The notes: generated by a model not told the origin, from the letters alone. A DNA stretch of 64,000 bases from an uncultured Actinomycetes bacterium (GCA_963730285.1 CAVSQY010000008.1:57433-121432), one strand, 5' to 3'; shown: positions 29,297 through 54,736, counted from the first letter of the stretch. Numbers and translations are program-made.

Positions 29297-29874
29297 GGAG
29301 AGAGATCATGATGCCCTCGAAGACTGGCCCGCTACTACCTCGACCACACGAACACTCCCACCGTCGGGGGGGAGAAACCCCACGTCAACCTGGTCTTGTG
29401 ACCTCAACGCCCTCCAAAGGAGTAGCAGGAGGGTCACATGAGACCATCCCAGGACGAGTGTTGACCGTCACCCAGGTCAGAACCCTGGCCTGCGATGCTT
29501 CGGTCAGCCGGATCGTCTTGGGTGCAGCTTCGGAGATCATCGACATCGGTTGAAGAACCAGAGTCATACCAGCAGCCCTACGTCGAGCGGTCATCACAAG
29601 AGACCGGCATTGCACCTGGAAGAAAGGATGCAACCGGCCCGCCCGGTGGTGTGACATCCACCACGACCAACACTGGGCGAACGGCGGGCAGACCGGCCTC
29701 CACAACTGCCGGCTCCTCTGCCGGTACCACCACACCCTCACCCACCAGCTAGAACAAACCACACGACCACAGGATCGGCAGAGAAGACCACCGATTGGAC
29801 GTCAACCCTGGATGAGCCGACCGATGCGAGATCTGTCAAGAGCCCGGTCGCCCGCCCTCGTCCGACGGGAGTGA
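29290..29874 (+). pseudogene. Internally deleted DUF222/HNH endonuclease (REP13E12-like) remnant
   Basis: LACDA..RIV..DIG*RTR..RRAV..RDRHC..GC..WCDIHH..W..GG.T..N..LLC.YHH; in-frame TGA at 29551; frameshifted DALED/LARYYLDH..GGEKPHV segment. Confidence 0.85.
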
Positions 29875-39486: not shown

Positions 39487-41711
39487 GCTCGCTCCAGCGG
39501 GGCCCAAGCGAGAAGAAGCCGCTTCTTACCCTGAGTGTCGAACATCACCTCGGCTTCGGCGCGATCGCCGCTGCCCACTATCTCACGGACCGTTCCAAGA
39601 CCCCACTTGTCGTGGCGGACCCGGTCACCCGGCCCCACATCTGTGGCGTTGAGGACGGTGCGAGGACCCGCCGACGCGACTCGCTCTGACGCGGTGCGGC
39701 GTTGTCGCTTTCCGGCCTTCTCCACGAGACCATCGGGGATCTCGGCCAGGAAGCGCGAAGGGGGGTTGTAGTTGGAGCCACCGAACAGCATGCGGCTCCA
39801 GGCCGAGGTCAGATGCAAGTGGTCCTGTGCGCGAGTGATCCCGACATAAGCCAGCCTTCGCTCTTCCTCCAGCTCGGCCGGGTCGCCGAGGGATCGCATG
39901 TGCGGGAAGACGCCGTCCTCCATGCCGACGATGAAGACGACAGGGAACTCGAGGCCCTTCGCCGTGTGGAGCGTCATGAGGGTCACCGCACCGGCCCCCT
40001 CCTCCCACTCGTCGATGTCTGCCACCAGGGCGGTCGATTCGAGGAAGATCTCCAGGCGTCGCATGTTGTCCAGGTCATCGAAGGCTTCATCGCCGATGAT
40101 TGCCCCCTCATTCCCGTGCTCGAATTCGGCGGCGACACCGACCAGCTCACGCAGGTTCTCCACCCGGCCCATCGCCTCGATGGTCCGTTCCGACTCCAGA
40201 CGGGCCAGCATGCCGGTCACATCGAGAACAGCCTGAACCGCCGCCTCCACCCCGCCCGCCACAGCCTCCTCGCGGAGTCGCTCCATGATGGCCGCGAATT
40301 CCGCGACGGCCGCCTGGGCTCGTGCGTTCAGCTGGGCAATCTGGTCGACATGGGCGATGGCCTCGAAGAAGCTGATCTTGTGGTCCTGGCTGTAACGATC
40401 GAGATGGGCGATTGTGGTGTCTCCGATCCCGCGCCGCGGCTCGTTGATGATGCGTTTCACGGAGACTTCGTCGGAGGGGTTGACGATGCTGCGCAAATAG
40501 GCCACAGCGTCCTTGATCTCCTTGCGGTCGTAGAACTTGACCGATCCGACCACCGAGTACTGGATGCCGCGGCGGACGAAGACATCCTCGATCACCCGCG
40601 ACATCGCGTTGGTCCGATAGAACACCGCCATGTCGGAAAGATTGAACCCTTCCGTCTTCAGCTTCTCGACTTGATCGACCACATAGCCGGCCTCGTCGTG
40701 CTCATCCTCCGCCTCGTATCTGAAGATGGGCACCCCCTTCCCCCGGTCGGACCAGAGGCTCTTCGGGGTTCTTTGGGTGTTGTTGGCGATCACAGAGTTG
40801 GCCGCGTCGAGAATCGTCTCGGTGGATCGGTAATTCTGCTCGAGCACGACGATCCGCGAATCCGGGTAGTCGCGCTCGAATTCTCGGATGTTTCGGATGT
40901 CGGCGCCCCGGAATTTGTAGATCGACTGGTCCGAGTCACCCACGACACAGAGGTTCCTATGGCTATCGGTCAGCTGCTTCACCAGCATGTATTGGGCCCG
41001 ATTGGTGTCCTGGTACTCGTCCACGAGGACATATCTGAATCGTTCCTGATAATGGGATTGGACGTCGGGAAACGCCCCGAAAAGCTCAACGGTCACCATC
41101 AGCAGGTCGTCGAAGTCCATTGCAGATGCCTGCAGGAGGCGTTGCTGATACAGGCGGTAGATATCGGCCACCTGCTCGTGATAGAAGCCATCGCCCTGGT
41201 CGGAGAACGACTCGTAGTCGACCAGTTCGTTCTTCGCCTTGGAAATCACCGCCTTCATCGCCTTGGGCGGGAATCGCTTGGTGTCGAGGTCGAGGTCCTT
41301 GACCACGAGGTTGAGGAGTCGCAGCGAATCGGCGTCGTCGTAGATGGAGAATCCCGATCGATAGCCGAGCCTCGACGCCTCACGGCGAAGGATGCGGACG
41401 CAGGCCGAGTGGAACGTCGACACCCACATCGAGCGGACCGCTCCGCCCACCAGGGCCCCGACACGATCCTTCATCTCGTCTGCTGCCTTGTTGGTGAATG
41501 TGATCGCGAGAATCGACTGCGGGGCAACACCGAGGTCCCTGATGAGATGGGCGATCCGATAGGTGAGAACTCTGGTTTTCCCGGACCCGGCGCCGGCGAC
41601 GACGAGCACCGGCCCTTCCGTCGCCGCCACTGCCTCCCGTTGGGTGGGGTTCAGATCGGCGAATAGGGGCGATTCGGCCGGCACATCATCGAGAAACCAT
41701 TCCGCCTGCAT
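39483..41711 (-). CDS. pcrA: ATP-dependent DNA helicase PcrA/UvrD
   Basis: AGAGSGKT, TFTNKAA, DEYQDTN, VGDSDQSIY, HTAKGLEF, EERRLAYVGITRA, Tudor-like C-terminus. Confidence 0.96.
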   Translation of the reverse strand: MQAEWFLDDVPAESPLFADLNPTQREAVAATEGPVLVVAGAGSGKTRVLTYRIAHLIRDLGVAPQSILAITFTNKAADEMKDRVGALVGGAVRSMWVSTFHSACVRILRREASRLGYRSGFSIYDDADSLRLLNLVVKDLDLDTKRFPPKAMKAVISKAKNELVDYESFSDQGDGFYHEQVADIYRLYQQRLLQASAMDFDDLLMVTVELFGAFPDVQSHYQERFRYVLVDEYQDTNRAQYMLVKQLTDSHRNLCVVGDSDQSIYKFRGADIRNIREFERDYPDSRIVVLEQNYRSTETILDAANSVIANNTQRTPKSLWSDRGKGVPIFRYEAEDEHDEAGYVVDQVEKLKTEGFNLSDMAVFYRTNAMSRVIEDVFVRRGIQYSVVGSVKFYDRKEIKDAVAYLRSIVNPSDEVSVKRIINEPRRGIGDTTIAHLDRYSQDHKISFFEAIAHVDQIAQLNARAQAAVAEFAAIMERLREEAVAGGVEAAVQAVLDVTGMLARLESERTIEAMGRVENLRELVGVAAEFEHGNEGAIIGDEAFDDLDNMRRLEIFLESTALVADIDEWEEGAGAVTLMTLHTAKGLEFPVVFIVGMEDGVFPHMRSLGDPAELEEERRLAYVGITRAQDHLHLTSAWSRMLFGGSNYNPPSRFLAEIPDGLVEKAGKRQRRTASERVASAGPRTVLNATDVGPGDRVRHDKWGLGTVREIVGSGDRAEAEVMFDTQGKKRLLLAWAPLERA

Positions 41712-41759
41712 CGTGAGCCGATGGTACCGGCGGCCGCCGATTGAATCACAACGATGTGA

Positions 41760-42668
41760 TCAGGTGGTGAGAACCGTCTCGTCGTCGAGCTCGACGGCGG
41801 CCGTGGAGTCGGCATCGAAAGGCTCGATCAACTCTGCGTCACCGACCACGGTGCGTCGACGCAATGGCAACGAGTAACAGAATCGAGCGCCGGTCGGGAA
41901 TCGACGCTCATACCAGACTTCGCCACCCATTGCGCGGGCCAGGCGGCGGGCGATGGGAAGGCCGAGACCGATGCCCGTCGATTCCCTGGCATCGCCCTTG
42001 GAGAGTTGCTCGAAGTTCTCGAACACTCGCTGGGTCTCCTGGTCCGGCACCCCCGGGCCATTGTCCGAGATCACGATCAGATATTGGTCACCCATGACAA
42101 ACCCCTCGACCATTATCTGATCTCCGCCGTATTTCCTGGCATTCTCCATCAGGTTCCTGATCACCTGCTGGACCCGCCTACGGTCGGCTTTGACCCGCAC
42201 CCCGTCGGGGAGGGAGATGAGCGAGCTCTTCTTCCCACCGTTGGGGAACACCATGTTGGCCACGTCTTCGATCAGGTCACCGAGATCGAAGAGCTCGGGA
42301 TTGAAGCGAAGCCGATCGGCCTCGAGGCGGGGGATGACCAGCACGTCCTCCACCAGATCCCCCAGATAGACGGCCTGTCTATTGATGATCCCGAGGAATT
42401 CGTCGACCTCTGACTCAGGGAGCTCCTGCCAGGAATCGACCAAAGTGTCGGCAAAACCCGCGATCGATGTCAGTGGGGTCCGGAGCTCGTGACTCACCAT
42501 GGCGACGAAATCGTTCTTGATGCGATGGGCCTCCTCTGACAGTCGACGGACCTCGCGCTCTCGTTGCCGTCCGTGCCGGGTGATGGCGAGCGCCCAGACG
42601 ACACCACCCAGACCCACCAGCGGGAGGAGGTAGATCAACCAATCGGGGAGCTGGGGCAGATCGAGCAT
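41760..42668 (-). CDS. Single-TM histidine kinase without an obvious sensor domain
   Basis: SHELRTPL, NLMENARKY, DNGPG, GIGLGL. Confidence 0.92.
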   Translation of the reverse strand: MLDLPQLPDWLIYLLPLVGLGGVVWALAITRHGRQREREVRRLSEEAHRIKNDFVAMVSHELRTPLTSIAGFADTLVDSWQELPESEVDEFLGIINRQAVYLGDLVEDVLVIPRLEADRLRFNPELFDLGDLIEDVANMVFPNGGKKSSLISLPDGVRVKADRRRVQQVIRNLMENARKYGGDQIMVEGFVMGDQYLIVISDNGPGVPDQETQRVFENFEQLSKGDARESTGIGLGLPIARRLARAMGGEVWYERRFPTGARFCYSLPLRRRTVVGDAELIEPFDADSTAAVELDDETVLTT

Positions 42669-42677
42669 TCCCGTGGT

Positions 42678-42705
42678 TTATCGGCCGATGCCCGAGTCGG
42701 GTTTA
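42678..42705 (-). promoter_or_regulatory. Sigma28 (FliA/WhiG)-type promoter TAAA-N16-GCCGATAA
   Basis: Both boxes match the consensus exactly; 9 nt before the kinase ATG. Confidence 0.75.
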
Positions 42706-42723
42706 GTGCTCACAGCCGGCCTG

Positions 42724-44733
42724 TCACCCGGCGCCGGCGTCCTCGTCGAAACCCATTAGACGGCGCAAGGTTGTGCTGAGAACTCCCTGTCTCAAGTCGA
42801 ACTTGTCCAGGTAAGCGTCGACCCCGACCTCCCATGCCGCCCGTTTCTCCTCTTGTGTCGCCACACCCGAGACCATGACTATCGGCACCCTCACGTCCGA
42901 GGCGCGCAGAGTTCGCACCAGTTCGACACCATTGCTGCGTGGCATCGAGTAATCGATGACCATCGCCTCGAAGCCATCGGCCACCATGGCCTGCATCGCC
43001 TCTCGAGCGCTGGCCGCCACCTCCACCTCGAAACCGGCGCCATTGAGGGTGGCGGAGAGAAGCTGTCGAACCCCGGCGGAGTCGTCCACCACCAGCACTC
43101 GGGGCCGATGGTCTGCGCTATGGGGGCGACGTGTGGCGGTCAGACCCAGGAAGTTCGGGTCCAACACCACCAGGACCTGACCACCCCCCAACAAGGCGGC
43201 GCCGGTCACGTGCCCTGAGCCCTCGAGAATGGGACCCAGGTTCTTCACCGCCACCCGTCTCCGATCGACCAGCTCGCTGACCTTCACAGCAACGAGGCCA
43301 AAGCGCGTATTGACGACGATCAACTCCGACTCATCGGGGATCGGATCCAGCCCAACCGCCTTGGACAGGGAAACACAAGGGATATCGCGGCTCAGGAATC
43401 CCACCGACTGACCCACTTCCGTGTCGGTCAGCTGAGCATTGCTCAGGGGCATGGTTGCCTCGATCGACGCCTCCGGCAATCCCCAGAATTGATCACCCGT
43501 GGCCACCACCAGGACATTCTGGAGGACCATGGAGAGCGGGAGGGTCATGGTGACCGTGGTCCCCTGGCCCGTCGGCGACTCGACCCGGACTATCCCATTG
43601 ACCCGCTCCATGGCATCGCGCACTGTGGCCAGACCCTCACCAGAGCCCGAGAAATCCGTGACCTCCTCAGACGTGGTGAATCCTGGGCGGAACAGGACGG
43701 GGCTCATGTCTGCGAAGACGAAGGGGATCTTTTCCTGGGTCGCCACCTCGGCGACGCGATCCCAGTCGATGCCTCTGCCGTCATCCGATACCGAGATCTC
43801 CACGCTGTCATCGACCACTTGCGCCTTGATGCTCACTCTCCCGGTAGCGCTCTTGCCAATGGCGACTCGCTGGTCCGGCGGCTCGATCCCATGATCGACG
43901 GCATTGACGAGGAGATGACGAAGGGGCTCGCGGAGCATGTCCACGATCTGCCTGTCGATCTGCACATCCTCGCCGCTCGACTCGATGCGCACGTCCTTGC
44001 CCACCCGGCGTCCCAGGTACCGAACAAACTGAGTGAAGGTGGCAGTGGCGTCCCGAAAGGAGACGTTGGCAAGCGCGACCGCCTGGTCCTGGATCTCGCC
44101 GACTGAGTTGGAGAGGCGCTCCAGCTGTCCCCGCCAGGTCTTTCTGAAGAGAGAGGGATCAGTGCCTTCGATCGAGATGAGGGACAGGTCGACGAGGGCT
44201 TCGGCGTCGAGGGACACCTCGACGATACGGTTGATGAGGCGATAGAGGTCTGAGGTATCGACTCTCGTCGCGCCACCGAGGAGAGATTCCGAGATGGAGG
44301 TCAGAAGGCCACCCAGGTTGCCGGGGTCCGGTCGTCGCAGCGGGACCACCTCCGCCGGCTCTCCCTCCTCGCTCGAAAAGAGAACGAGACGGTCGGCGAT
44401 GCGTGTCAGCTCGGAGTCGTCACCGGTGTCCATCGAGTCGAGCAAGCGGCCGGCGCTGGCCTCCATCGCCACCATCACCTCCGCAGACTGCCGGGTCCCC
44501 TCTCCAACCGAGCGCCACAGACTCTCGAGACGTGAGGCAACCTCCTTGATCTGCGGGTAGCCGAGAAGGCTGGCCGAGCCTTTCACCGTGTGTGCATCCC
44601 GAATGAGGTCCTGAACCCTGGCCTCATCGAGATCACGATCTTGCAGGGCTCGCGCACCCGCGACCAAACGCCGTGAGCGTTCCTCGAGCTCCTCGCGGAA
44701 AATGCGCGTCAACTCCGCTGGTTTGTCCTCCAA
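42724..44733 (-). CDS. CheA-like hybrid kinase (Hpt-HATPase-CheW-REC); start approximate (TTG)
   Basis: AHTVKGSA (Hpt His), HLLVNAVDHGIE, DDGRGID, FRPGFTT, CheW-like domain, REC domain VVDDS..IDYSMP..K. Confidence 0.88.
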   Translation of the reverse strand: MEDKPAELTRIFREELEERSRRLVAGARALQDRDLDEARVQDLIRDAHTVKGSASLLGYPQIKEVASRLESLWRSVGEGTRQSAEVMVAMEASAGRLLDSMDTGDDSELTRIADRLVLFSSEEGEPAEVVPLRRPDPGNLGGLLTSISESLLGGATRVDTSDLYRLINRIVEVSLDAEALVDLSLISIEGTDPSLFRKTWRGQLERLSNSVGEIQDQAVALANVSFRDATATFTQFVRYLGRRVGKDVRIESSGEDVQIDRQIVDMLREPLRHLLVNAVDHGIEPPDQRVAIGKSATGRVSIKAQVVDDSVEISVSDDGRGIDWDRVAEVATQEKIPFVFADMSPVLFRPGFTTSEEVTDFSGSGEGLATVRDAMERVNGIVRVESPTGQGTTVTMTLPLSMVLQNVLVVATGDQFWGLPEASIEATMPLSNAQLTDTEVGQSVGFLSRDIPCVSLSKAVGLDPIPDESELIVVNTRFGLVAVKVSELVDRRRVAVKNLGPILEGSGHVTGAALLGGGQVLVVLDPNFLGLTATRRPHSADHRPRVLVVDDSAGVRQLLSATLNGAGFEVEVAASAREAMQAMVADGFEAMVIDYSMPRSNGVELVRTLRASDVRVPIVMVSGVATQEEKRAAWEVGVDAYLDKFDLRQGVLSTTLRRLMGFDEDAGAG

Positions 44734-44761
44734 TGGATCAATCCCCTGGCCGGTCGGGTTG

Positions 44762-44788
44762 TTATCGGCACGCCACCGTCCCCTCTGA
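44762..44788 (-). promoter_or_regulatory. Sigma28-type promoter TCAG-N15-GCCGATAA
   Basis: Perfect -10 octamer 28 nt upstream of the inferred start; imperfect -35. Confidence 0.6.
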
Positions 44789-44901
44789 ATGAACCGAACG
44801 ACCCTGGCCCCGGATTGCGCCAGGGCGAAGAGATTTGGAGATCCATCGCCATGAAACCGCACTCCCGGCCATTGGGTTTGTCGCTCAAGTGGGGAAGGTG
44901 C

Positions 44902-46461
44902 TCACTCCCACTCGATGGTCGCAGGGGGTTTGGACGAAATGTCGTATGCAACGCGATTGATACCGGGTACCTCGTTGATCACCCGGCTCGATATCCGCTC
45001 CAGAACCTCATAGGGAAGTCTCGCCCAGTCCGCCGTCATCGCATCTTCTGACGTGACCGCCCTGACGATCAACGGATAGGCATAGGTCCGCAGGTCCCCC
45101 TGGACTCCCACCGTTCGAACGGCGGGGAGCACGCCGAAAGCCTGCCAGATCTCCCGGTACAGTCCCGCCCGCCGAATCTCCTCGGTCACCACCCGATCGG
45201 CCTCCCTGAGAATGGCGAGACGGTCCCTGGTCACCTCGCCGATGATGCGCACCGCCAGCCCGGGGCCCGGGAACGGTTGACGCCACACGATGTCCTCGGG
45301 AAGCCCTAGCTCTTCTCCGATGGCTCTCACCTCGTCTTTGAAAAGATCGCGCAGCGGCTCCACCAACTCGAATTGCATGTCGTCGGGTAGGCCGCCGACA
45401 TTGTGATGGGTCTTGATGGTGGCTGCAGACGATGACCCGGACTCGATGACATCGGGGTAGAGAGTGCCCTGTACGAGGAATCGAGCATCCCCGACCGTCG
45501 AAGCCGCCTCCTCGAAGACCCGGATGAATGTCTCACCGATGATCTTCCTCTTCTCCTCGGGATCGACCACCCCCGCAAGCAACTCGAGAAACCGATCCTC
45601 GGCCTTGACGTGGACGAATTCCACCTCGAAGTGAGATCGGAATGTCTCCTCGACCTGTTCGGCCTCACCCGACCTGAGCAGACCGTGGTCAACGAAGATA
45701 CAGGTGAGCCGATCACCCACGGCGGCATGGACTATGGCGGCCGCCACCGCCGAGTCGACTCCGCCCGAAAGGCCACATATCACATGCCCCTCACCCACCT
45801 GGGCTCTGATGGCCGCAATCTCCCATTCGATGATGGAGTGGGATGTCCATCCCGGTGTGGCTCCACAGACCTCATAGAGGAAACGCTTGAGGATGTCGGC
45901 GCCATGGGGAGTGTGAGCTACCTCGGGATGGAATTGGACTCCATACAGAGCGCGGTCGCGATCCTCCATTGCTGCCACCTTGGCCCCCATGGACGTGGCA
46001 ACGGAAACGAAGCCCGGCGGGGCCTCGGTCACTTGGTCGCGATGTGACATCCAGACTTGTTGATCTTTGGGCAGTGCCTGCATGAGAAGTGAGTCGGCAA
46101 CGACTTCCATGGTGGTGTTGCCGTACTCGGCGGTCTCACTGTTGGCAACTGTCCCACCGGCGAGATCTGCCATCACTTGATGGCCGTAACAGATGCCGAG
46201 GACCGGTATCCCCATCTCGAGGATGGCGGGGTCCATCCGATAGGCGCCCTCGGCATACACCGAGGCGGGGCCACCCGACAGGATCAAGCCGACCGGATGG
46301 CGCTCACGGATCTCCTCGGGAGTTATCTCCCTGGAGACGATCTCAGAATGGACATGGGCCTCCCGCACTCGGCGAGCGATCAACTGGGCGTATTGAGCGC
46401 CGAAGTCGACAACGAGGACCGATTCTTCGGGTCTGGCCGATGAGCGCTCCTCCGGGCTCAT
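44902..46461 (-). CDS. guaA: GMP synthase (glutamine-hydrolysing)
   Basis: [39 protein letters not shown]. Confidence 0.97.
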
Positions 46462-46507
46462 CGCCGGTCCGGCCGCCCCGACCAGGGGCGCGAGGCCGGT
46501 GGGTGGG

Positions 46508-47665
46508 TCATCCCATCCCTACACGCTGACTGCGCTGCAGCGACTTGCCTTCGGTCATCAGCGAGGGAGCGATCATCACTTCAGCCTTCTGGAACTCCTT
46601 TACATCGGAGTACCCGGTGGTCGCCATCGACACCTGAAGCGCCCCAAAGAGATTCAGCTTCCCGTCGTTCTCATGGGCGGGACCGAGCAGGATTTGATGA
46701 AGGGGCCCACGGCGACCAACCTCGACGCGGGCTCCCCTGGGAAGCGTGGGGTGGAAGGTGGCCATACCCCAATGGAAACCACGTCCTGGCGCCTCACTCG
46801 CCGAGGCGAGTGGCGACCCGATCATGACGGCATCGGCCCCACAGGCGATGGCCTTGGCCACATCACCACCGGTGCGCATACCCCCGTCCGCTATCACGTG
46901 GACATAGCGCCCGGTTTCATCGAGGTAGCGAATCCTGGCGCCGGCCGCATCGGCGATAGCCGTGGCCTGCGGGACACCCACACCAAGGACGCCACGGGTC
47001 GTACAGGCGGCTCCAGGCCCGACACCAACGAGTATGCCCACGGCGCCTGTGCGCATCAGATGCAGTGCCGTCGAATAACTGGCGCAACCCCCTACGAGGA
47101 CGGGGACCTCGCAATTGGCGATGTACTCCTTGAGGTTGAGCGGCTCCTCGCGACTGGAAACATGCTCTGCCGACACAACCGTGCCCTGTATCACCAGGAC
47201 GTCCAGCCCTGCTGACAGGGCATGTGGCGCCCAGCTCCCGACCCGCTGTGGGGTGAGCGAGGCGGCAGTCACGACTCCTTCGGCCTTTATCTCTTCGACC
47301 CGGCGGCCGATCAAATCGGGTTTGACCGGCTCGAGATAGATCTCCTGCATGCGGAGAGTCGCCTTCTCGGTGTCGAGCTCGGCAATCTCCTCGAAATAGG
47401 GCTCGGGGTCTTCATAGCGTGTCCACAGGCCCTCGAGATTCAACACGGCAAGACCGCCAAGCTTGCCGATCTGCACGGCAGTGGCCGGGCTGATGGCAGA
47501 GTCCATTGCCGACCCCATCATCGGGAGGTCGAACTTGAAGGCGTCGAGTTGCCACGAGATGTCCACGTCGTCGGGATCCCGTGTCCTCCTGGAGGGGACG
47601 ATCGCAATGTCGTCGAACCCGAATGCCTGCCGACCCGACTTGCCAATGCCGATGTCGATTTCCAC
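46508..47665 (-). CDS. guaB3: GuaB3-family IMP dehydrogenase-related protein
   Basis: [46 protein letters not shown]; GGAGG upstream of GTG. Confidence 0.92.
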
Positions 47666-47742
47666 TTTGTCGCTACCTCCGCCGACGATCAATTCAGCGT
47701 AACAGTGACGGCCGCCGGTCCATCTGTAGGCTGCCCGAGCCC

Positions 47743-48447
47743 GTGCGCAAGTCCTGGTCCTACATCGATTTCTTGTTGGTCGTCCTCGGAGGGTTCCTCG
47801 GCGCCGGTGCCTTCGTGGCCGTTGCAAGCCTTTTCTCGAGTGATGAGCTGGCACTCGTGATGGTGCTCATCGGTCAGTACGTCGGGCATCTCGTGGTGTT
47901 GTGGCTCCTGGCCCGCACCAAAGAGAATCCGGACCTGGGTTTCGCCATCGAGGGTACCGATCTCCTCTACCTCTTCCTCGGGGTCGGCCTCCAACTTGGT
48001 CTGGCACTCCTCTTCCTGCCACTGAGCACGCTGCTGTTCCCCAACGGGGACACGGCACAACAAGTCGGCTCCGCGCTGGGGGGCCTTCAGACCACCGCAG
48101 CCAAAGTGGCCGCAGTCTTCACGGCGACGGTCGTTGCCCCTGTGACCGAGGAGCTGACCTTCCGCGGTGTCCTGATCAAGGCAATGAGCACCCGCTCGCG
48201 GCGGGTGATCATGGTGGCCACAGCAGCCATATTCGCCGCTTTCCACCTGCTCGGGCTCGACCCGACGCACATGCTGGCCGCGGCCGCCGTGGTGCTCCCC
48301 CAGCTTTTCCTGGTTGGGCTCCTGTTGGCTTGGGTGACTCTACGTTCCGGACGTCTCGGCCCGGCGATATTCATCCACTCCGGCTTCAATCTCCTGGCCG
48401 CGCTCATCCTGCTGCTGCCTTCGCAGCTGCTCGAATCGATCAAGTAG
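47743..48447 (+). CDS. CPBP (Abi/CAAX) intramembrane protease
   Basis: APVTEELTFRG, FAAFH, IFIHSGFN. Confidence 0.88.
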   Translation: MRKSWSYIDFLLVVLGGFLGAGAFVAVASLFSSDELALVMVLIGQYVGHLVVLWLLARTKENPDLGFAIEGTDLLYLFLGVGLQLGLALLFLPLSTLLFPNGDTAQQVGSALGGLQTTAAKVAAVFTATVVAPVTEELTFRGVLIKAMSTRSRRVIMVATAAIFAAFHLLGLDPTHMLAAAAVVLPQLFLVGLLLAWVTLRSGRLGPAIFIHSGFNLLAALILLLPSQLLESIK

Positions 48448-48457
48448 CGGTTTCGGC

Positions 48458-49438
48458 TTAACCGAGCCCGACCTTCTCACGAACTGTGATCATGGAGCGC
48501 TCGGCGCGCTCCATGGCGATCTTGGCGCTGTTCTCCATCACCGCCGACACCTCGGCGTCGGTGAGCGAGCGGTATGCCTCTTGGATGGGGCGGAGACCCT
48601 CGACGATGGCATCGGCCACGGCGGTTTTGAACACCCCATACCCTCCTTGCGCAAAGTCGACGACCAGCTCATCGATCGGGCGCTCGGTGAAGAAACTGAA
48701 CAACTCCAGCAGGTTGGAGATGCCTGGCTTCCTCTCCCAGTCATAAGCCACGTCGGTGCCGGCGTCCGTCACCGCCGACTTGATCTTCTTCACGATCTGG
48801 TCGGGCGCGTCGTTCAGCAAGATGCGCGACCGCTCACTGGGGTCCGACTTCGACATCTTGGAAGTCGGTTCGGTCAGCGACATCACCCGGGCGCCGATCT
48901 CTGGGGTAATCCGTTCGGGGATGGGGAACTCTTCCCCGAAGCGATGATTGAATCGCTCGGCAACATCGCGGGTCAGCTCCAGATGCTGGGCTTGGTCGTC
49001 GCCCACGGGGACCGCATGGACCTTGTGGATCAAGATGTCCGCCGCCTGCAGGACCGGGTAGGCGAGAAGACCCAGGTTCTGACCCGAGCGATCGGTCTTC
49101 TCCTTGAACTGGGTCATCCTCTCCAATTGGCCCAGACCCACCAGGTTTCCCAGTATCCAGGAGAGCTCGAGATGCTGAGGGACCTCGGATTGGTAGTAGA
49201 GGAGCGATCGCTTCGGGTCGACGCCGGTTGCCAAGATCATGCGCGCTAGCTCGTGACGGTCGCGACGGAGCTGAGCCGGGTCGTAGGGAAGCGTCATTGC
49301 GTGCAGATCGACCACGCAGTAGATCGTCTCGTACTCGTCCTGCATGCGCACCCAGTTGTCCAGGGCGCCCACCAGATTGCCCAGGTGTGGCTCGCCGGTG
49401 GGTTGCATCCCCGAGAAAACTCTCTTGTCGCTCATCAT
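48458..49438 (-). CDS. trpS: Tryptophan--tRNA ligase
   Basis: SGMQPTG.PHLGN, RMTQFKEK, YPVLQAADIL, VPVGDDQ, KMSKS. Confidence 0.97.
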   Translation of the reverse strand: MMSDKRVFSGMQPTGEPHLGNLVGALDNWVRMQDEYETIYCVVDLHAMTLPYDPAQLRRDRHELARMILATGVDPKRSLLYYQSEVPQHLELSWILGNLVGLGQLERMTQFKEKTDRSGQNLGLLAYPVLQAADILIHKVHAVPVGDDQAQHLELTRDVAERFNHRFGEEFPIPERITPEIGARVMSLTEPTSKMSKSDPSERSRILLNDAPDQIVKKIKSAVTDAGTDVAYDWERKPGISNLLELFSFFTERPIDELVVDFAQGGYGVFKTAVADAIVEGLRPIQEAYRSLTDAEVSAVMENSAKIAMERAERSMITVREKVGLG

Positions 49439-49452
49439 CTCCGGATCTCATG

Positions 49453-49505
49453 AAAAAGCCGTCGTGGCCGGGGCCGCCGACGGCATCTCGACGCGGGTTG
49501 TCGGC
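49453..49505 (-). terminator. Attenuator terminator/antiterminator upstream of trpS
   Basis: Stem GCCGTCG..CGACGGC followed by TTTTT (49484-49453); GCCGAC at 49505-49500 can pair with GTCGGC in the 5' arm. Confidence 0.8.
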
Positions 49506-49508
49506 TAC

Positions 49509-49547
49509 TCAGTGTCGGCGCCGGCTCCATCGCCTTTCTCGTGTCAC
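49509..49547 (-). CDS. Putative trpS leader peptide MTRERRWSRRRH
   Basis: GTG..TGA with one Trp codon, lying between a TTGACA promoter and the terminator hairpin. Confidence 0.65.
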   Translation of the reverse strand: MTRERRWSRRRH

Positions 49548-49555
49548 AGCCGTGC

Positions 49556-49585
49556 ACAGTATCGGCGGGTGCGAGAGGGTGTCAA
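49556..49585 (-). promoter_or_regulatory. Sigma70-type promoter of the trpS leader
   Basis: TTGACA (49585-49580) with TACTGT (18-nt spacer) or GATACT (16-nt spacer). Confidence 0.6.
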
Positions 49586-50586
49586 CGCCACGCGGCCACA
49601 TAGGCCTCCTGGTCCTCCAGGAGGCCCCATGCGCCGGAGAGGTCGGTTCCGGTGAGGACCGCCCCGCCTCCGGCACCGCTGAAGCGTGTGGCCGACAAGG
49701 CGGTTCCCGATAGGTCGGCGTCCGAGAGATCGGCCCCCGAGAAGTCTGCCCCCTCCAGGTCGGAGCCAGAGAGATCGGCGCCACGGAGGTTGGCTCCGGA
49801 CAGGTCGCTCAGCGACAGGTTGGAATTGCGCAGATCGGCGTCGGGCAGGGCGACGCCGCGGAGATCGCAATTCTTGAGGTAGAGACGGGAAAGGCGGCGG
49901 GTTGACGGAGCCCACGCCCGGAGATCGGCTCCGAGCAAGACCCGCCCCCGATACTTGTCGTAGCTATCAGCGGCAAGGAAGCGTCCCAGCTGCTCAGGGC
50001 GCATGGAGCCTGTTGAGAATCGCTCTTGGCCCGACGTCGGATCTCCGTTGTTGTGATAGGCCGAGTTGCTTTCCCACCATCCCTCTCGATCCTCGGCGAG
50101 CAGCACTACCCGCCGCACCCACTTGGGCGACTTGTAGAAGTATCGACCGGGCGTCACCACCCGAACCGGGCCACCGTGCTCGATCGGCAGCGGCTCCCCT
50201 TCGAATCGGTGCACCACCCAGCTTCGCTCCATCACCAGCTCGAGTGGCAACGATGTGTGATGCCCGTGCGTGGAGTACGTCTCGAACGAGACGAAGCGAG
50301 CGCCAGGGCTTGGCCCCGCTCTCTCCAGGAGCCTGGCCATGGGGGCTCCGGTCCAGTGGGAGCCGAAGCGGCTCCAACCAGTGACGCAATGGATGTCGAA
50401 GATGAGTGGCGAGGTGGCAAATGAGGTGAGCTCCCCAACGCCGATGCTGACCTCGGTGTTGACCAGTCCGGTCACCACCAGGCACCAGTCGGGGGTCTCA
50501 CCGAGCTCGGGTGACGGTGCACGCTCGCCCACGATAGGGAAGCGCTTGGTCTCGATCTGACCGGGGGGAAGCCGATGCTCGCTCAC
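49582..50586 (-). CDS. Molybdopterin oxidoreductase (sulfite-oxidase/MsrP-like) fused to pentapeptide repeats
   Basis: RLPPGQ, DIHCVTGWS, EHGGPVR..P.RYFYKSPKW; C-terminal (A/S)(D/N)LSG-type repeats. Confidence 0.88.
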   Translation of the reverse strand: MSEHRLPPGQIETKRFPIVGERAPSPELGETPDWCLVVTGLVNTEVSIGVGELTSFATSPLIFDIHCVTGWSRFGSHWTGAPMARLLERAGPSPGARFVSFETYSTHGHHTSLPLELVMERSWVVHRFEGEPLPIEHGGPVRVVTPGRYFYKSPKWVRRVVLLAEDREGWWESNSAYHNNGDPTSGQERFSTGSMRPEQLGRFLAADSYDKYRGRVLLGADLRAWAPSTRRLSRLYLKNCDLRGVALPDADLRNSNLSLSDLSGANLRGADLSGSDLEGADFSGADLSDADLSGTALSATRFSGAGGGAVLTGTDLSGAWGLLEDQEAYVAAWR

Positions 50587-50612
50587 CCCGACATTGTGGC
50601 AAAGACGGTCGT

Positions 50613-51674
50613 TCAGCCGGCCATGGCGCCGGTCACGTCATCGGCAGTCTCGGGTGCCAGGGCAGAGGCGACGAGGTCGGCGATGTCGACTTGAGCGACC
50701 AGAACCGCGGCGCCAGCCGACGTGGTGGCGTCAGAGACCGGGATGGTCAGCTGGTCGACGGTGCCTCGCCCCAGGCCGCGCATGGACCAGGCCAGATCCA
50801 CCGCATCGAACAGGGTGAGGTCCGAGTCGACGGTCACGTAGGGAGCGATAACTCGAGCGATGTCCGCCATGTCGGCCGGGCTGCCGAGGTTGGACATCCG
50901 CCCCATCATGTCGAGGAGGAACTTCCGCTGGCGCTCATTGCGAGTCAGGTCGCTGACACCGGGAATGGTTCGCCAGCCGTTGTCGGTCAGCTCTTGGGTG
51001 TGGCGCGATCTCAACCAGGCGAGTGCCTGGGCACCGGTTGCATGAGTGCATCCCTTGGGGAGATCGAGATCCGCCTTTTGATCTCGCACCGCTTTGTCGA
51101 GACAGATCTCGTAGCCACCAATGGCATCGACCGCTTCCTGAAAACCGGCGAGATCGACCAGGGCAAAGTGGTCGATGGTCTGCCCAATAACGTTCTCAAC
51201 GGTCTGGGTCAAGGCAGTCGGCCCGTTCATCGTGTCGCCGCAGCCTTCGAGGGCATCGTTGAGCCGATGCTCGGCATCGCTGCAGACGTCATCGACCAGC
51301 AGGTCCCGCGGGAGTGACAGCAGCAGGGCGTGTGTCCCATCCTGCGGCTTGATCAGGACCATCACCACATCGGCGCGATTGCCCTGAAAATCTCCAAAAC
51401 CCTCTGTGGAGGTGAGGTCGGCGCGGGAGTCCGACCCGACCAACAATGTCACACTCAGCCCGTCACCACCCACCGAGGCGGCCAAAGGGCCAGCGTCGGA
51501 AGACGCCTGGTTACCTTGACCGGAGTCGGGTGAGGGGCCCACATTGGCGTCGATGGCCTCTCGATCGATACTGACACGTTTGACGTCACCCCAAGTGGAC
51601 AAGGCAAATGCCACACCAACTCCTGCCACCAGCAAGAGCACGATGGCACTACCGACCAAGATGCGTTTTCTCAT
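50613..51674 (-). CDS. LCP (LytR-CpsA-Psr) family protein
   Basis: N-terminal TM, LLVGSDSR, RADVVM, SLPRD, VDAIGG, RSRH, DLTRNERQ. Confidence 0.92.
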   Translation of the reverse strand: MRKRILVGSAIVLLLVAGVGVAFALSTWGDVKRVSIDREAIDANVGPSPDSGQGNQASSDAGPLAASVGGDGLSVTLLVGSDSRADLTSTEGFGDFQGNRADVVMVLIKPQDGTHALLLSLPRDLLVDDVCSDAEHRLNDALEGCGDTMNGPTALTQTVENVIGQTIDHFALVDLAGFQEAVDAIGGYEICLDKAVRDQKADLDLPKGCTHATGAQALAWLRSRHTQELTDNGWRTIPGVSDLTRNERQRKFLLDMMGRMSNLGSPADMADIARVIAPYVTVDSDLTLFDAVDLAWSMRGLGRGTVDQLTIPVSDATTSAGAAVLVAQVDIADLVASALAPETADDVTGAMAG

Positions 51675-51758
51675 TGCTCACCCAAAGTGGACATACCCCA
51701 AAGACCTGAATCCTATGTGTTGAGACGCTTCCGCGAGCCCGGTGCCACGAAGCGGGAG

Positions 51759-53537
51759 TCAGGCAGTCACCGGGACTTCTGCTGTTGCAACCACATCCAA
51801 CGGGGCGCTGACCGGGAGGGACAACTCGAAACGAGGTTCCACGTCGGCGCCCACATATCGTAGCGTTCCCCCCATCATCTCCGCCAGCTGACGGGATACT
51901 GCCAGGCCTATCCCCACTGATCCGGGCTGGGTGGGCGACTGGTCGCTGCGGTAGTAGCGCTCGAAGATCAATTCCGTCTCGGCCTCACCCACTCCCGAGC
52001 CATCGTCGATGACCAGAACCTGGGCCAGGTCGGTCGTTTCCCGCACGACCACCGCGATCCGGTTTCCGCCGTATCGGATGGCGTTTGTCAACAGGTTGCG
52101 GATGACCTGGCGGGATCGAAGAGGGTCTGCCCACGCCACCACATCCCCATCTCCAGCCACGACGATGACCTTCTGGGTCGGGTGTGACTCTCGAATCCCG
52201 CGCACGACACTCTCGACCTCGGTCATGACATTCATGTCTTGCGGCTTGATCGAGAGATTCCCAAACTCCGCCCTCGACGCCACCAGCAGGTCCTCGACGA
52301 GCTCCGCGAGCTCTCGACTCTGCACCGCGATGATCCCGTTCAACTCGTCGAGCTCCTCCGCCCCGAGACTGGTCCGGCTGGCAACGATCTCCTCCGACAG
52401 GCCGACGATGGCCGTGAGTGGCGTCCTTATCTCATGGCTCACCGACGCCAACAGCTTGTCCTTGGACTCGTTGGACGCCTTCAGTTGTTCTTGGTCGTCC
52501 TGACGTCTCCAATACGCCCCGATCATGTGCGACGCCCGCCAAAGCGTGCTCACCTCGTCCTCGGTCCACTGACGCTCACCCGTGTACTCGACGAAGCCGA
52601 TCGATCCCCGGAACTCCTCGCCCACGAATATCGGGACCGAAAGCTCGGTGACAATCCCATCCCGCGCATACTCGTCCCGGTCCTCACCGGTGAGCTGGTC
52701 GGTGTGAATTGCTATCGCCCGCCCTGTCGACAACGCCCGGTAGGTGGAGGACTGCTCCCGGTAGACACCACTCTTCCAACCTCCGGTCGCATGCTCGGCC
52801 TTGCGATGGGCATCGGCAATGATCTCCCAGTGGGTCTCATCGTCTCTGACTGAGTTGCGATCCACATAGGAGTAATCGGCTTCCGTGGCGACGAGAAGCG
52901 CCTTCAATGCCTCGTAGATGGCAAATGTGTCGGTCTGCACCAAGAGTGACTCCGAGCACGTGGCGATGGCATGCTGCAGGCGCGTGGCCCTTTCATATCG
53001 GGAGATGGACTCCGACAATTGGTCATACAACTTCGAGACCAGGGTCGTCGTGAAGACGACACCCGCCAATGCCGTCACCGCTCGTATGGCAACGACCTCG
53101 GCCTTCTCCCCGTCGAGGATGCCCATGGTGACACTCCACACTGCCACGGCCACCCCTGCGGCCACGGACCAGACCACCCGGCTGCCTGAGCTCAGGGTCC
53201 CGGCGAGGACCGCGAGCATCATTATCAGCCCGAACGTGGTGGTGAAGTCGAATGCCGATATCTCGATATGGAACAGGCCCTCGACGACTGAGAGGGTTCC
53301 GAAGAACCAAATGGTGGTGAGAACCAGGAGCATTGAGTCTGCATCTCGCCTCTGGGTAAGCCAGACAGCCCATATGGCCAGCACCAGGTAGCTGGCCCAG
53401 CGGATCGGAGCCAGCGGTGACTTCATGTCCATGCCGACGATCTCGAGGACCGCCAGCGCTGGGAAGGTCACGGCGAACAACACTGCCACATAGCGGTGGA
53501 AGCGTTGTTGCGCCTCAATTGGAGCGCGCACACTCAC
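51759..53537 (-). CDS. Membrane sensor histidine kinase with GAF domain (start approximate)
   Basis: About 6 TM helices, GAF (SVPIFV..GSIGF..WTEDE), SHEIRTPL, NLLTNAIRY, DDGSG, GIGL. Confidence 0.9.
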   Translation of the reverse strand: MSVRAPIEAQQRFHRYVAVLFAVTFPALAVLEIVGMDMKSPLAPIRWASYLVLAIWAVWLTQRRDADSMLLVLTTIWFFGTLSVVEGLFHIEISAFDFTTTFGLIMMLAVLAGTLSSGSRVVWSVAAGVAVAVWSVTMGILDGEKAEVVAIRAVTALAGVVFTTTLVSKLYDQLSESISRYERATRLQHAIATCSESLLVQTDTFAIYEALKALLVATEADYSYVDRNSVRDDETHWEIIADAHRKAEHATGGWKSGVYREQSSTYRALSTGRAIAIHTDQLTGEDRDEYARDGIVTELSVPIFVGEEFRGSIGFVEYTGERQWTEDEVSTLWRASHMIGAYWRRQDDQEQLKASNESKDKLLASVSHEIRTPLTAIVGLSEEIVASRTSLGAEELDELNGIIAVQSRELAELVEDLLVASRAEFGNLSIKPQDMNVMTEVESVVRGIRESHPTQKVIVVAGDGDVVAWADPLRSRQVIRNLLTNAIRYGGNRIAVVVRETTDLAQVLVIDDGSGVGEAETELIFERYYRSDQSPTQPGSVGIGLAVSRQLAEMMGGTLRYVGADVEPRFELSLPVSAPLDVVATAEVPVTA

Positions 53538-53544
53538 CCTGGAA

Positions 53545-53573
53545 TGATCGGCAGGCGGACAATCGGAACTTGA
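53545..53573 (-). promoter_or_regulatory. Sigma28-like promoter TCAAG-N16-GCCGATCA
   Basis: 7/8 match to the -10 octamer; 7 nt before an in-frame GTG. Confidence 0.5.
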
Positions 53574-53586
53574 CGGGTCGGCCGAC

Positions 53587-54114
53587 CTATGAGAGACCGA
53601 GCAGGGATCGGACCATGAATGCGGTGGCGCCCCACAATGTGTCGCCCTCGAGGTCGTAATACCAGACCTGGCGGCCGTCCCAGGGAACATGCCACCATCT
53701 CGACTCGTCGGCGAGCTCGGCGAGGCGAGGCGTATAGACCTTGGCCACCTCTCGTTCGCTCGGAATCAGGTTGAGAGGCATCCGTATTCGGCCCACCACA
53801 GGCACCACCCACGGTCTGAACTCGACCGTGTCTATGACAGGGAGAAACCCCAGGACCTCCACCCTCTCGGGCTCTATGCCCACCTCCTCGTGGGTCTCAC
53901 GGAGCGCAGTGGCCACCGGGCCCGAGTCATCAGGATTGGCCCTCCCCCCGGGAAATGCGATGTGCCCCGCATGAGTGGGCATGGTGTCGGGGCGTTTGGT
54001 GAGGATCACCCTCACGTCACCGTCCTCGTCCTCGTAGAGGGGGGCGAGAACCGCAGCCATCGCGTCGGAGTCGTCGAGCCCGGCTTCGTGCAGCAGATGG
54101 AGTCTGTCCCACAT
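53587..54114 (-). CDS. Nudix CoA pyrophosphatase
   Basis: LTKR..HAGHIAFPGG, ALRETHEEVG, LWGATA. Confidence 0.92.
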   Translation of the reverse strand: MWDRLHLLHEAGLDDSDAMAAVLAPLYEDEDGDVRVILTKRPDTMPTHAGHIAFPGGRANPDDSGPVATALRETHEEVGIEPERVEVLGFLPVIDTVEFRPWVVPVVGRIRMPLNLIPSEREVAKVYTPRLAELADESRWWHVPWDGRQVWYYDLEGDTLWGATAFMVRSLLGLS

Positions 54115-54151
54115 TCATGCCACAGGTTACGCCCGCCGATAATGTGAACCG

Positions 54152-54736
54152 GTGCCCAGGCCTACGATCGAGACCGACCGGTTGATTCTCCAGAAGCTCA
54201 GCAGACGCGACGTGAGCACCTACGACGAGGCGACCAGGGTCTCGCTCCCTGAGTTGAATCAATGGCTGCCCTGGGCGCGGCTCGACTATGAGACGGCCGA
54301 CACCACCGCGTTCATCAGGGAGTCAATTCAGGCCTGGAAGGAGGAACGGGCCTGGGATTACTCGATCAGGCTTCTCGACAACCCCGACCGTCATGTGGGC
54401 AGTATCTCGCTGTGGACGGTGTCGAAGCTGGGGAAGATCGCCGAATTCGGATACTGGATCCGGAGTGACGAGCAATCTCGCGGCATCTGCACGGAAGCTG
54501 TTGAGTTGCTTCTGGACGAGGCCTTCACCTCCATGAAGTACCACAAGGTGACCCTTCGCATCGCGGTAGGGAACACGGCATCGGAACGTGTGGCTGAGAA
54601 GGTCGGGTTCACCAAGGAGGGGATCCTGCGAGAAGAGCTCCTGATCCGCGGCAACTGGGTGGATCACTCGTTGTGGTCATTGCTAGACCGCGAGTTCCGG
54701 TCGATCCGGCGAAGCGGGGCTCGCTCGACACCGTGA
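54152..54736 (+). CDS. GNAT acetyltransferase, RimJ/RimL family
   Basis: ETDRLIL, WLPW, EFGYW, N.AS.RVAEKVGF..EG.LR. Confidence 0.9.
   Translation: MPRPTIETDRLILQKLSRRDVSTYDEATRVSLPELNQWLPWARLDYETADTTAFIRESIQAWKEERAWDYSIRLLDNPDRHVGSISLWTVSKLGKIAEFGYWIRSDEQSRGICTEAVELLLDEAFTSMKYHKVTLRIAVGNTASERVAEKVGFTKEGILREELLIRGNWVDHSLWSLLDREFRSIRRSGARSTP

Follow-up and report, generated by a model that had tools for sequence, protein, structure and literature searches.

Candidate WhiG-type promoters upstream of orphan histidine kinase genes in a soil Acidimicrobiia genome

Three histidine kinase genes are found between positions 41,760 and 54,151 of a 64,000-nucleotide (nt) stretch of DNA (CAVSQY010000008.1:57433-121432 in assembly GCA_963730285.1; hereafter the window), which belongs to a 2.71-Mb metagenome-assembled genome, 96.9% complete, of a soil member of the Acidimicrobiia. 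A sequence-only reading of the window had proposed that all three genes are preceded by promoters of the type recognised by the sigma-28 family factors FliA and WhiG, that none of them adjoins a response regulator gene, and that a fourth such motif precedes a GNAT gene. The question raised by this locus is whether kinases lacking a genetically linked partner are expressed together from promoters read by one alternative sigma factor. From the motifs, their conservation in orthologues and the sigma factor genes of the genome, it is very probable that transcription of all three kinase genes starts at promoters recognised by the only sigma-28 family factor of this genome, an orthologue of WhiG.

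Conserved elements upstream of the kinase genes

The genes and sites are listed below in window coordinates, with a spacer of n nt between the -35 and -10 words written as Nn.

41760-42668, minus strand: small histidine kinase with one predicted transmembrane segment, 302 amino acids (aa); Pfam HisKA and HATPase_c, with an N-terminal hydrophobic segment and no sensor domain
42678-42705, minus strand: site 1, candidate WhiG-type promoter of the small kinase; TAAA 42705-42702, N16, GCCGATAA 42685-42678
42724-44733, minus strand: hybrid CheA-like kinase, 669 aa; Pfam Hpt, HATPase_c, CheW and receiver
44762-44789, minus strand: site 2, candidate WhiG-type promoter of the CheA hybrid; TTCA 44789-44786, N16, GCCGATAA 44769-44762
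51759-53537, minus strand: GAF-HisKA-HATPase_c histidine kinase (Pfam), 592 aa; start GTG 53537
53545-53573, minus strand: site 3, candidate WhiG-type promoter of the GAF kinase; TCAA 53573-53570, N17, GCCGATCA 53552-53545
54115-54151, plus strand: site 4, in the divergent NUDIX/GNAT spacer; TCAT-N16-GCCGATAA (54115-54142)

All four proposed motifs could be read off the sequence at these positions. The original parsing of sites 1 and 4 was retained, whereas TCAG-N15 at site 2 is the same DNA as TTCA-N16, and TCAAG-N16 at site 3 is equivalent to TCAA-N17. The published consensus with which these words can be compared is that of WhiG2, T(A/C)AA-N16-GCCGATAA. The -10 word has an invariant CGA core, being exactly GCCGATAA at sites 1 and 2 and GCCGATCA at site 3, and this block is kept in orthologues. 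After correction of two gene starts, the -10 word ends 9 nt (site 1), 28 nt (site 2) and 7 nt (site 3) before the start codon, and all of these sites are intergenic and less than 200 bp upstream. The strict WhiG2 rule (T[A/C]AA, N16) describes site 1; site 2 has TTCA-N16 and site 3 TCAA-N17, and site 4, with TCAT, falls outside the rule. The window encodes exactly three HATPase_c kinases, all with the motif, and no separate receiver gene, as had been claimed; its sole receiver domain is the C-terminal domain of the CheA hybrid.

There are four copies of the GCCGATAA word in the window, where 0.79 are expected; 1 of 100 shuffles reached this number, and the fourth copy (60099) is intragenic and antisense. 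Five matches to the composite T[ACT][AC]A-N16-GCCGAT were found (0.68 expected; 0 of 100 shuffles reached five), namely sites 1 and 2, one within a 498-aa frame, one before a 125-aa frame and one at 60478. The corresponding N17 composite was found twice, at sites 3 and 4, against 0.87 expected, and as 19 of 100 shuffles reached two, site 3 is not significant by window counts alone.

The start of the CheA hybrid was placed at TTG 44733. The upstream GTG 44862 was rejected, as homology begins near residue 44 and longer alignments cross stop codons. With the TTG as start, site 2 falls in the guaA/cheA spacer, and the 28 nt that separate its -10 word from the start codon include the ribosome-binding site AGGGGA. 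TTCA-N16-GCCGATA was present in all 25 genus loci (24/24 without the unpublished genome G019), and in an alignment of the 25 unique genus sequences no upstream stretch of at least three columns is invariant apart from TTCAG and TGCCGATA, with fifteen variable columns between them. The CheA N-termini of the same 25 sequences are only 66-93% identical. Outside the genus, TCAA-N16-G[CT]CGATA was found at all four orthologues from other families, which share 33-44% identity. Some conservation counts given here take in loci of the unpublished genomes G019, G027 and G038, and no conclusion rests on them.

The CheA hybrid is also the sole CheW-domain protein of the genome, and no match to MCPsignal (the methyl-accepting chemotaxis protein, MCP, domain), flagellin or a free CheW was found in the search of this 96.9% complete genome. 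As neither MCP nor flagellin was matched, and the only CheW domain is inside the hybrid, the protein is a CheA-like kinase with no chemotaxis system around it. It may function in the manner of a CheA, but it does not belong to a canonical chemotaxis pathway, for which receptors and a separate CheW adaptor were not found.

The start of the GAF kinase was reset to GTG 53537, 7 nt past the -10 word of site 3, and its transcript would be leaderless. True orthologues of this kinase were found in only five other genus genomes. GCCGAT stands 7-8 nt before the start in all six loci, and T-N-[AC]-A precedes it at N17 in five of them, with spacers that are unrelated (four unrelated spacer sequences). 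Most members of the genus lack the GAF kinase, and carry a conserved GTCTTAGAAT block followed by a different gene after the NUDIX gene. The absence of the kinase from beside the NUDIX gene in most genus members points to a recent gain or loss at this locus.

At site 1, the ATG (42668) is 9 nt past the -10 word, and the mRNA of the small kinase is therefore predicted to be leaderless or nearly so. Orthologues of the small kinase were found in 41 of the 41 relatives searched. Site 1 is among only four genome-wide matches to TAAA-N14..17-GCCGATAA with at most one mismatch, all of which have N16 and all of which lie just 5' of a start. In 11 of the 24 evaluable genus loci, [GTA]CCGATA (ATCGATAG in one) was found 9-10 nt before the start, preceded by TAAA, TACA, TTCA or TCAA at N15-16, and TCAA-N16-G[CT]CGA was present in the three evaluable loci of other families (3/3). 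Apart from site 1, the genome has one perfect TAAA-N16-GCCGATAA, at C2:247728 (minus strand), 9 nt before the ATG of a gene for a 359-aa product with no Pfam family and a weak match to the SCO4651 lipoprotein.

The fourth motif had been described as preceding the GNAT gene and overlapping a sigma-70 -10 element, and both points agree with the sequence, where TAATGT (a TANNNT word) ends 6 nt before the GNAT GTG at 54152. GCCGATAA is kept in 22/23 genus loci, as is the entire 37-nt spacer AGGTTAAGCCCGCCGATAAYCTGA. However, site 4, and possibly other sites with T after GCCGATAA, can be read as leaderless promoters of the housekeeping factor sigma-A, in which a TANNNT -10 element simply overlaps the sigma-28 word, and on balance this is probably so for site 4. 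TAAYCT takes the place of TAATGT in relatives; the would-be -35 word coincides with the NUDIX start codon and differs between loci (TCGA, TCAT, TCAA); other families keep at the GNAT gene only CGATAGGCT or TAGTCT (the TANNNT words TAGGCT and TAGTCT), 8 nt before the start, without GCC; and conservation of the whole divergent spacer is as expected of two back-to-back core promoters. Against this, the near-constant GCCGATAA, with TCAA at N15-16 in five genus loci, may reflect dual recognition, and sites 1 to 3 have no TANNNT at the matching position. Membership of the GNAT gene in a WhiG regulon is doubtful.

A further motif was seen at 29774-29799 (minus strand), where TCCA-N16-GCCGATCC is followed 7 nt on by the GTG of the 125-aa frame (29385-29762), which has no Pfam family. 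This may be another leaderless promoter of the WhiG type.

WhiG, RsiG and a dispersed set of candidate promoters

A sigma-28 family gene is present in the genome, as one locus (C7:409467-410246) passes the TIGR02479 model with 270.7 bits (cut-off 189.6). The product scores 334 bits, just under the cut-off of 343, with the 'WhiG' equivalog NF004935, and aligns over its full length to 6pfj_A with an E-value of 7e-81, compared with 7e-47 for FliA structures. The search listing names 6pfj_A only as 'RNA polymerase sigma factor'; we take it to be the WhiG chain of the RsiG-WhiG complex of Streptomyces venezuelae. The gene is located in the order comM-dprA-xerC-whiG-rpsB-tsf-pyrH-frr, the classic setting of whiG in actinobacteria. 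By sequence comparison, this sigma factor is an orthologue of actinobacterial WhiG. In the sigma-70 family, 28 region-2 matches exceed the cut-off, and the other members are far below the FliA/WhiG cut-off.

A gene for a homologue of the anti-sigma factor RsiG was likewise found. An exact RsiG motif expression searched over six frames returned spurious frames only, and when one mismatch was allowed a 176-aa homologue was identified at C8:176356-176886 (minus strand), which matches 6pfj_T (1e-15) and chains named RsiG (~1e-4) and has no matching NCBIfam model. It includes two motifs of the type that binds cyclic di-GMP (c-di-GMP), both reading E-S-R-H-D where the published form is E(X)3S(X)2R(X)3Q(X)3D. 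According to the passages of PMC8325347 on this motif, His often replaces Gln in the first RsiG motif and can stack likewise; those passages do not discuss His in the second. The combination of WhiG and RsiG with no flagellin match corresponds to the published 'WhiG2 plus RsiG, no flagella' pattern, and the table entry for Ilumatobacter coccineus YM16-304 reads one WhiG2, one RsiG and no flagellar cluster (PMC13595943).

The sole GGDEF-type domain of the genome reads GGDDF and is located behind a receiver domain (C7:602058-602993, plus strand), and the one EAL domain follows a HisKA/HATPase kinase within a single fusion protein (C14:68560-70347, plus strand). Turnover of c-di-GMP, if any, would be wired entirely through these two-component fusions. 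No WhiG-type site was seen in the 300 nt upstream of the receiver-GGDDF gene. With regard to autoregulation, T-N-[AC]-A-N16-GCCGAT was not found before whiG or rsiG.

Across the genome there are 47 copies of GCCGATAA, of which 16 are intergenic, with only ~10% of the genome being intergenic by crude gene calls. With spacer length as the internal control, enrichment of the two-block motif upstream of gene starts proved specific to the spacing, with a sharp peak at N16. With TAAA exact and up to one mismatch in GCCGATAA, four upstream matches were found at N16 and none at the other spacers from 8 to 29. Using four -35 words with GCCGAT, there were 17 upstream matches at N16 and four at N17, whereas control spacers gave 0-3 (mean 0.94 over 18 spacers; Poisson p = 4e-16). 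The relaxed form T-N-[AC]-A with GCCGAT gave 25 upstream matches at N16 against a control mean of 4.7 and maximum of 11. The words that emerged, cTAAAc and cTCAAg, are those of the published WhiG2 consensus, which was met only after the scan. The profile of all 361 intergenic GCCGAT sites is near flat, with only A at -17 prominent (107/361), and is too diluted for a weight matrix. The working promoter rule for this lineage is T-N-[A/C]-A, 16 bp, GCCGAT, and a regulon of about twenty promoters is predicted.

The signalling genes downstream of these sites, assigned by Pfam, encode histidine kinases, a receiver-only protein of 121-135 aa and two DUF4388 proteins, together with a HEAT-repeat protein that follows a receiver-only gene. 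Pilus targets are the TadE and TadG pseudopilins. Envelope and other targets are YkuD, VanY, two CAP proteins (one with SLH), a PL14-SLH protein, an epimerase, a solute-binding protein, a Cap4-nuclease-domain protein and several proteins without a family. For the gene of a CheY-like regulator at C7:347654, the motif was found in 22/22 genus loci and in 4/7 loci of other families. A short inverted repeat (gcgccc...ggggcg-like) is conserved in its leader, between the promoter and the ribosome-binding site AGAGGTGA, and may form a leader hairpin.

A TadE/TadG-like pseudopilin cluster is located just upstream of the window (C8:39420-44927, plus strand), with TCAA-N16-GCCGATGT at C8:42168 preceding its second half (TadE-TadG-TadE); the genome has five T2SSE-type ATPases. 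TTGA-N16-GCCGATAA was also found 0.8 kb before the window (C8:56614, minus strand), 41 nt 5' of a 788-aa PL14 polysaccharide-lyase/SLH gene.

Kinase genes are over-represented among the genes with a site. The strict motif precedes 4/25 kinase genes and 18/2,615 other genes (p = 4e-5), and with the relaxed -35 word the numbers are 7/25 and 19/2,615 (p = 2e-9). The enrichment extends to the remainder of the genome, where the relaxed motif precedes 4/22 kinase genes outside the window and 19/2,615 others (p = 3e-5). Eleven kinases have a separate receiver gene within 1.3 kb and are counted as paired, and the motif precedes none of these. The conserved motif was found at 6 of the 17 kinases that have no separate receiver gene within 2 kb and at 0/11 paired ones (hypergeometric p = 0.033, calculated by hand), and two more of the 17 have the motif outside this conservation count. 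The association with orphan kinases noted in the window holds for the whole genome. At individual kinase loci the motif is kept in 13/13 (C14:112522), 5/5 (C7:73031) and 23/23 (C6:217083) cases. Two weaker kinase sites were also recorded:

C14:43836: weaker kinase site
C13:158061: weaker kinase site

Readings of the promoter set

The proposal of a dispersed set of WhiG-type promoters is borne out in its motif, in the sigma and anti-sigma factor genes, in spacer-specific enrichment, in conservation at orthologues and in the bias towards orphan kinases. In the mechanism envisaged, RsiG would hold WhiG, and on its release the WhiG holoenzyme would initiate at some twenty promoters, recognising a -35 word T-N-[A/C]-A (TAAA, TCAA, TTCA, TGAA or TGCA), after which G or C is usual, and a -10 word GCCGAT(A)(A) positioned 16 bp downstream, or 17 bp in the case of the GAF kinase. 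At ~40% of the promoters the start codon is 6-11 nt past the -10 word, which would produce leaderless mRNAs. The products would be mostly orphan signalling proteins (at least six kinases, the CheY-like regulator and the two DUF4388 proteins), plus Tad pseudopilins and cell-wall or S-layer-anchored enzymes, such that one anti-sigma switch would turn on a set of orphan signalling proteins. The gating of WhiG by RsiG and c-di-GMP, the leaderless state of the mRNAs and the pairing of kinases with receivers are each predicted. As to the output of the network, one promoter before the Tad pseudopilins and several before cell-wall enzymes would be consistent with motility, adhesion or development.

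Several observations weigh against transcription of the three kinase genes by WhiG. Initiation by WhiG at the sites is something that we infer, the link between the two resting on sequence. The sequencing runs listed for positions 41700-44950 are of soil and wetland metagenome DNA, none of them RNA. Sites 2 and 3 are outside the strict published WhiG2 rule and were accepted only via conservation, and site 3 has the correct word at N17, a pattern that is not above chance by window counts. Site 1 is degenerate or lost in 13 of the 24 evaluable genus orthologues and would thus be dispensable there; the small kinase gene begins 55 nt after that of the CheA hybrid, and read-through from the always-conserved site 2 may explain this relaxed constraint. 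The relatives are kin, and conservation counts are footprints rather than independent trials. About five of the 25 relaxed N16 matches are expected by chance, and gene starts came from a home-made caller that has no ribosome-site model. Between 24 and 28 kinases are counted according to how they are defined (the Fisher tests used 25, the comparison of orphan and paired kinases 28). Outside the window the strict motif precedes 1/22 kinase genes and 18/2,615 others (p = 0.15), and the relaxed -35 word was itself suggested by one kinase, without which the count is 3/21 (p = 6e-4).

A broader reading joins these elements. In this flagellum-less soil lineage, WhiG would have kept the signalling half of an ancestral sigma-28 motility regulon, retaining the CheA-CheW-receiver fusion and the CheY-like protein, and this half would have grown into a relay of many kinases. 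Roughly one in four histidine kinases of the cell, none of them with a partner regulator, would come under one anti-sigma switch, and their signals would meet at a few single-domain receivers in control of Tad pili and of remodelling of the envelope. As a whole this reading is tentative and rather unlikely. As the only c-di-GMP enzymes are two-component fusions (receiver-GGDDF and kinase-EAL), such a relay could set the c-di-GMP level that is read by RsiG, and the loop might close.

A single relay is not the only arrangement that real promoters would allow. WhiG could instead drive a mixed regulon of the late stage or of stress, with unrelated kinases included only incidentally, and this is a substantial possibility, though not one that we would expect to prevail. 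The targets do extend to the YkuD, VanY, CAP/SLH, PL14-SLH, epimerase, solute-binding and Cap4-nuclease-domain proteins, and the phosphotransfer partners of the kinases are predicted only. However, kinases are over-represented, and only orphan ones, and the CheY-like regulator and both DUF4388 proteins share the promoter type. In addition, the coordinates of the CheA hybrid and small kinase genes show that they adjoin or are within ~1 kb of one another in three other families.

It is very unlikely that site 1 is the only real sigma-28 promoter and that sites 2, 3 and 4 are chance look-alikes. Their -35 words (TTCA, TCAA at N17, TCAT) depart from the published WhiG2 rule, window counts show no enrichment of the N17 pattern, and the first scans, with TAAA exact or with two mismatches allowed in total, ranked them with noise, the latter with intragenic noise. 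For sites 2 and 3 the comparison of orthologues reversed this ranking: neither block of site 2 changes in any of the 25 genus loci (25/25), amid freely varying flanks and spacer, while the orthologues from other families have the canonical TCAA-N16, and GCCGAT at site 3 keeps a fixed distance from the start in 6/6 orthologues across four unrelated spacers. For site 4 the chance explanation still stands. Recognition of the conserved two-block element by some other DNA-binding protein (a repressor, an activator or another alternative sigma factor) is very improbable. Sigma-70 family genes are indeed numerous in the genome, but FliA/WhiG promoters are reported to have these same words in this order, with a 16-bp spacer and the invariant CGA core. 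The distance of the elements from start codons, 6-10 nt or a short leader, is that of a core promoter, and the other sigma genes score far below the FliA/WhiG cut-off. Transcription of the three kinase genes by the WhiG holoenzyme is thus the reading that was retained.

Comparison with known systems

In Escherichia coli (FliA) and Bacillus subtilis (SigD), sigma-28 drives cheA, cheW and cheY together with the motility apparatus. The CheA-CheW-receiver fusion and the CheY-like protein described here similarly have promoters of the sigma-28 type; however, there is no match to flagellin, MCP or free CheW in this genome, and the anti-sigma factor is RsiG rather than FlgM. For WhiG1/FliA of Actinoplanes missouriensis, the consensus quoted by Denis et al. 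(bioRxiv 10.64898/2026.01.14.699351; mSystems 2026, PMC13595943) is CTCA-N16-17-GCCGAACT, and the TTCA and TCAA words and the N17 of site 3 are within the variation reported for that clade. The clade goes with a flagellar cluster and without RsiG, unlike the present genome, which has RsiG and no flagellin match.

In S. venezuelae and Streptomyces coelicolor, WhiG is a dedicated sporulation factor, the targets of which are given in PMC13595943 as whiH, whiI and vnz_15005. The present system resembles that of Streptomyces in its orthologous WhiG, located in the same chromosomal neighbourhood, in its twin-motif RsiG and in having an orphan regulator as target (WhiI there, the CheY-like protein here). 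However, in place of three known targets there are about twenty predicted promoters in a genome of 2.7 Mb, and no evidence of sporulation.

There is also a parallel with a non-sporulating actinobacterium, and the earlier statement that its RsiG-WhiG regulon includes pilus genes agrees with PMC8325347. In the passages of that paper on Rubrobacter radiotolerans, 12 promoters were mapped, three in a type IV pilus cluster and five before GGDEF/EAL genes, and RsiG is a single-motif homodimer. The two systems share WhiG and RsiG in the absence of sporulation, a -35 TAAA and -10 GCCGATAA, and a dozen or so promoters that include pilus genes. In contrast, the targets here are mainly orphan histidine kinases, the CheY-like regulator, Tad pseudopilins and wall enzymes, RsiG has twin motifs with His for Gln, and the sole GGDEF-like gene is not preceded by a WhiG-type site. 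The sites here are also predicted from sequence, whereas those in Rubrobacter were mapped.

Denis et al. examined WhiG regulons across the phylum using T(A/C)AA-N16-GCCGA with a fixed CGA, and the search logic and consensus used here are the same. For several families that work already predicts WhiG targets among regulators, chemotaxis and type IV pilus genes and the enzymes of c-di-GMP. It also shows that foreign homologues of WhiG are functional in S. venezuelae. The genome table includes just two Acidimicrobiia, Acidimicrobium ferrooxidans and I. coccineus. Its main text nowhere uses 'kinase', 'CheA' or 'Acidimicrobi', and 'histidine kinase' is absent from the portion of the supplementary text that was consulted, though other tables could list kinases. 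Neither an Acidimicrobiia WhiG regulon nor a class of histidine kinase targets was found in the literature, of which the published regulon tables were perhaps not fully covered.

WhiG is a textbook example of a sigma factor that has been re-used, for flagella, spores and pili, and a computational regulon is now added for the Acidimicrobiia, which are abundant in soil and water, barely cultured and were left out of the published regulon survey. Its main cargo, orphan histidine kinases and a CheY-like regulator, suggests a way in which dispersed kinases without partners can be coordinated, via one shared alternative sigma factor. Annotation of the genome also gains, in that two gene starts were corrected and a leaderless mRNA is probable for many of these genes. 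Promoters of this type, their sigma and anti-sigma factors and the re-use of WhiG for non-flagellar tasks are already published, and what is distinctive here is the composition of the target set.

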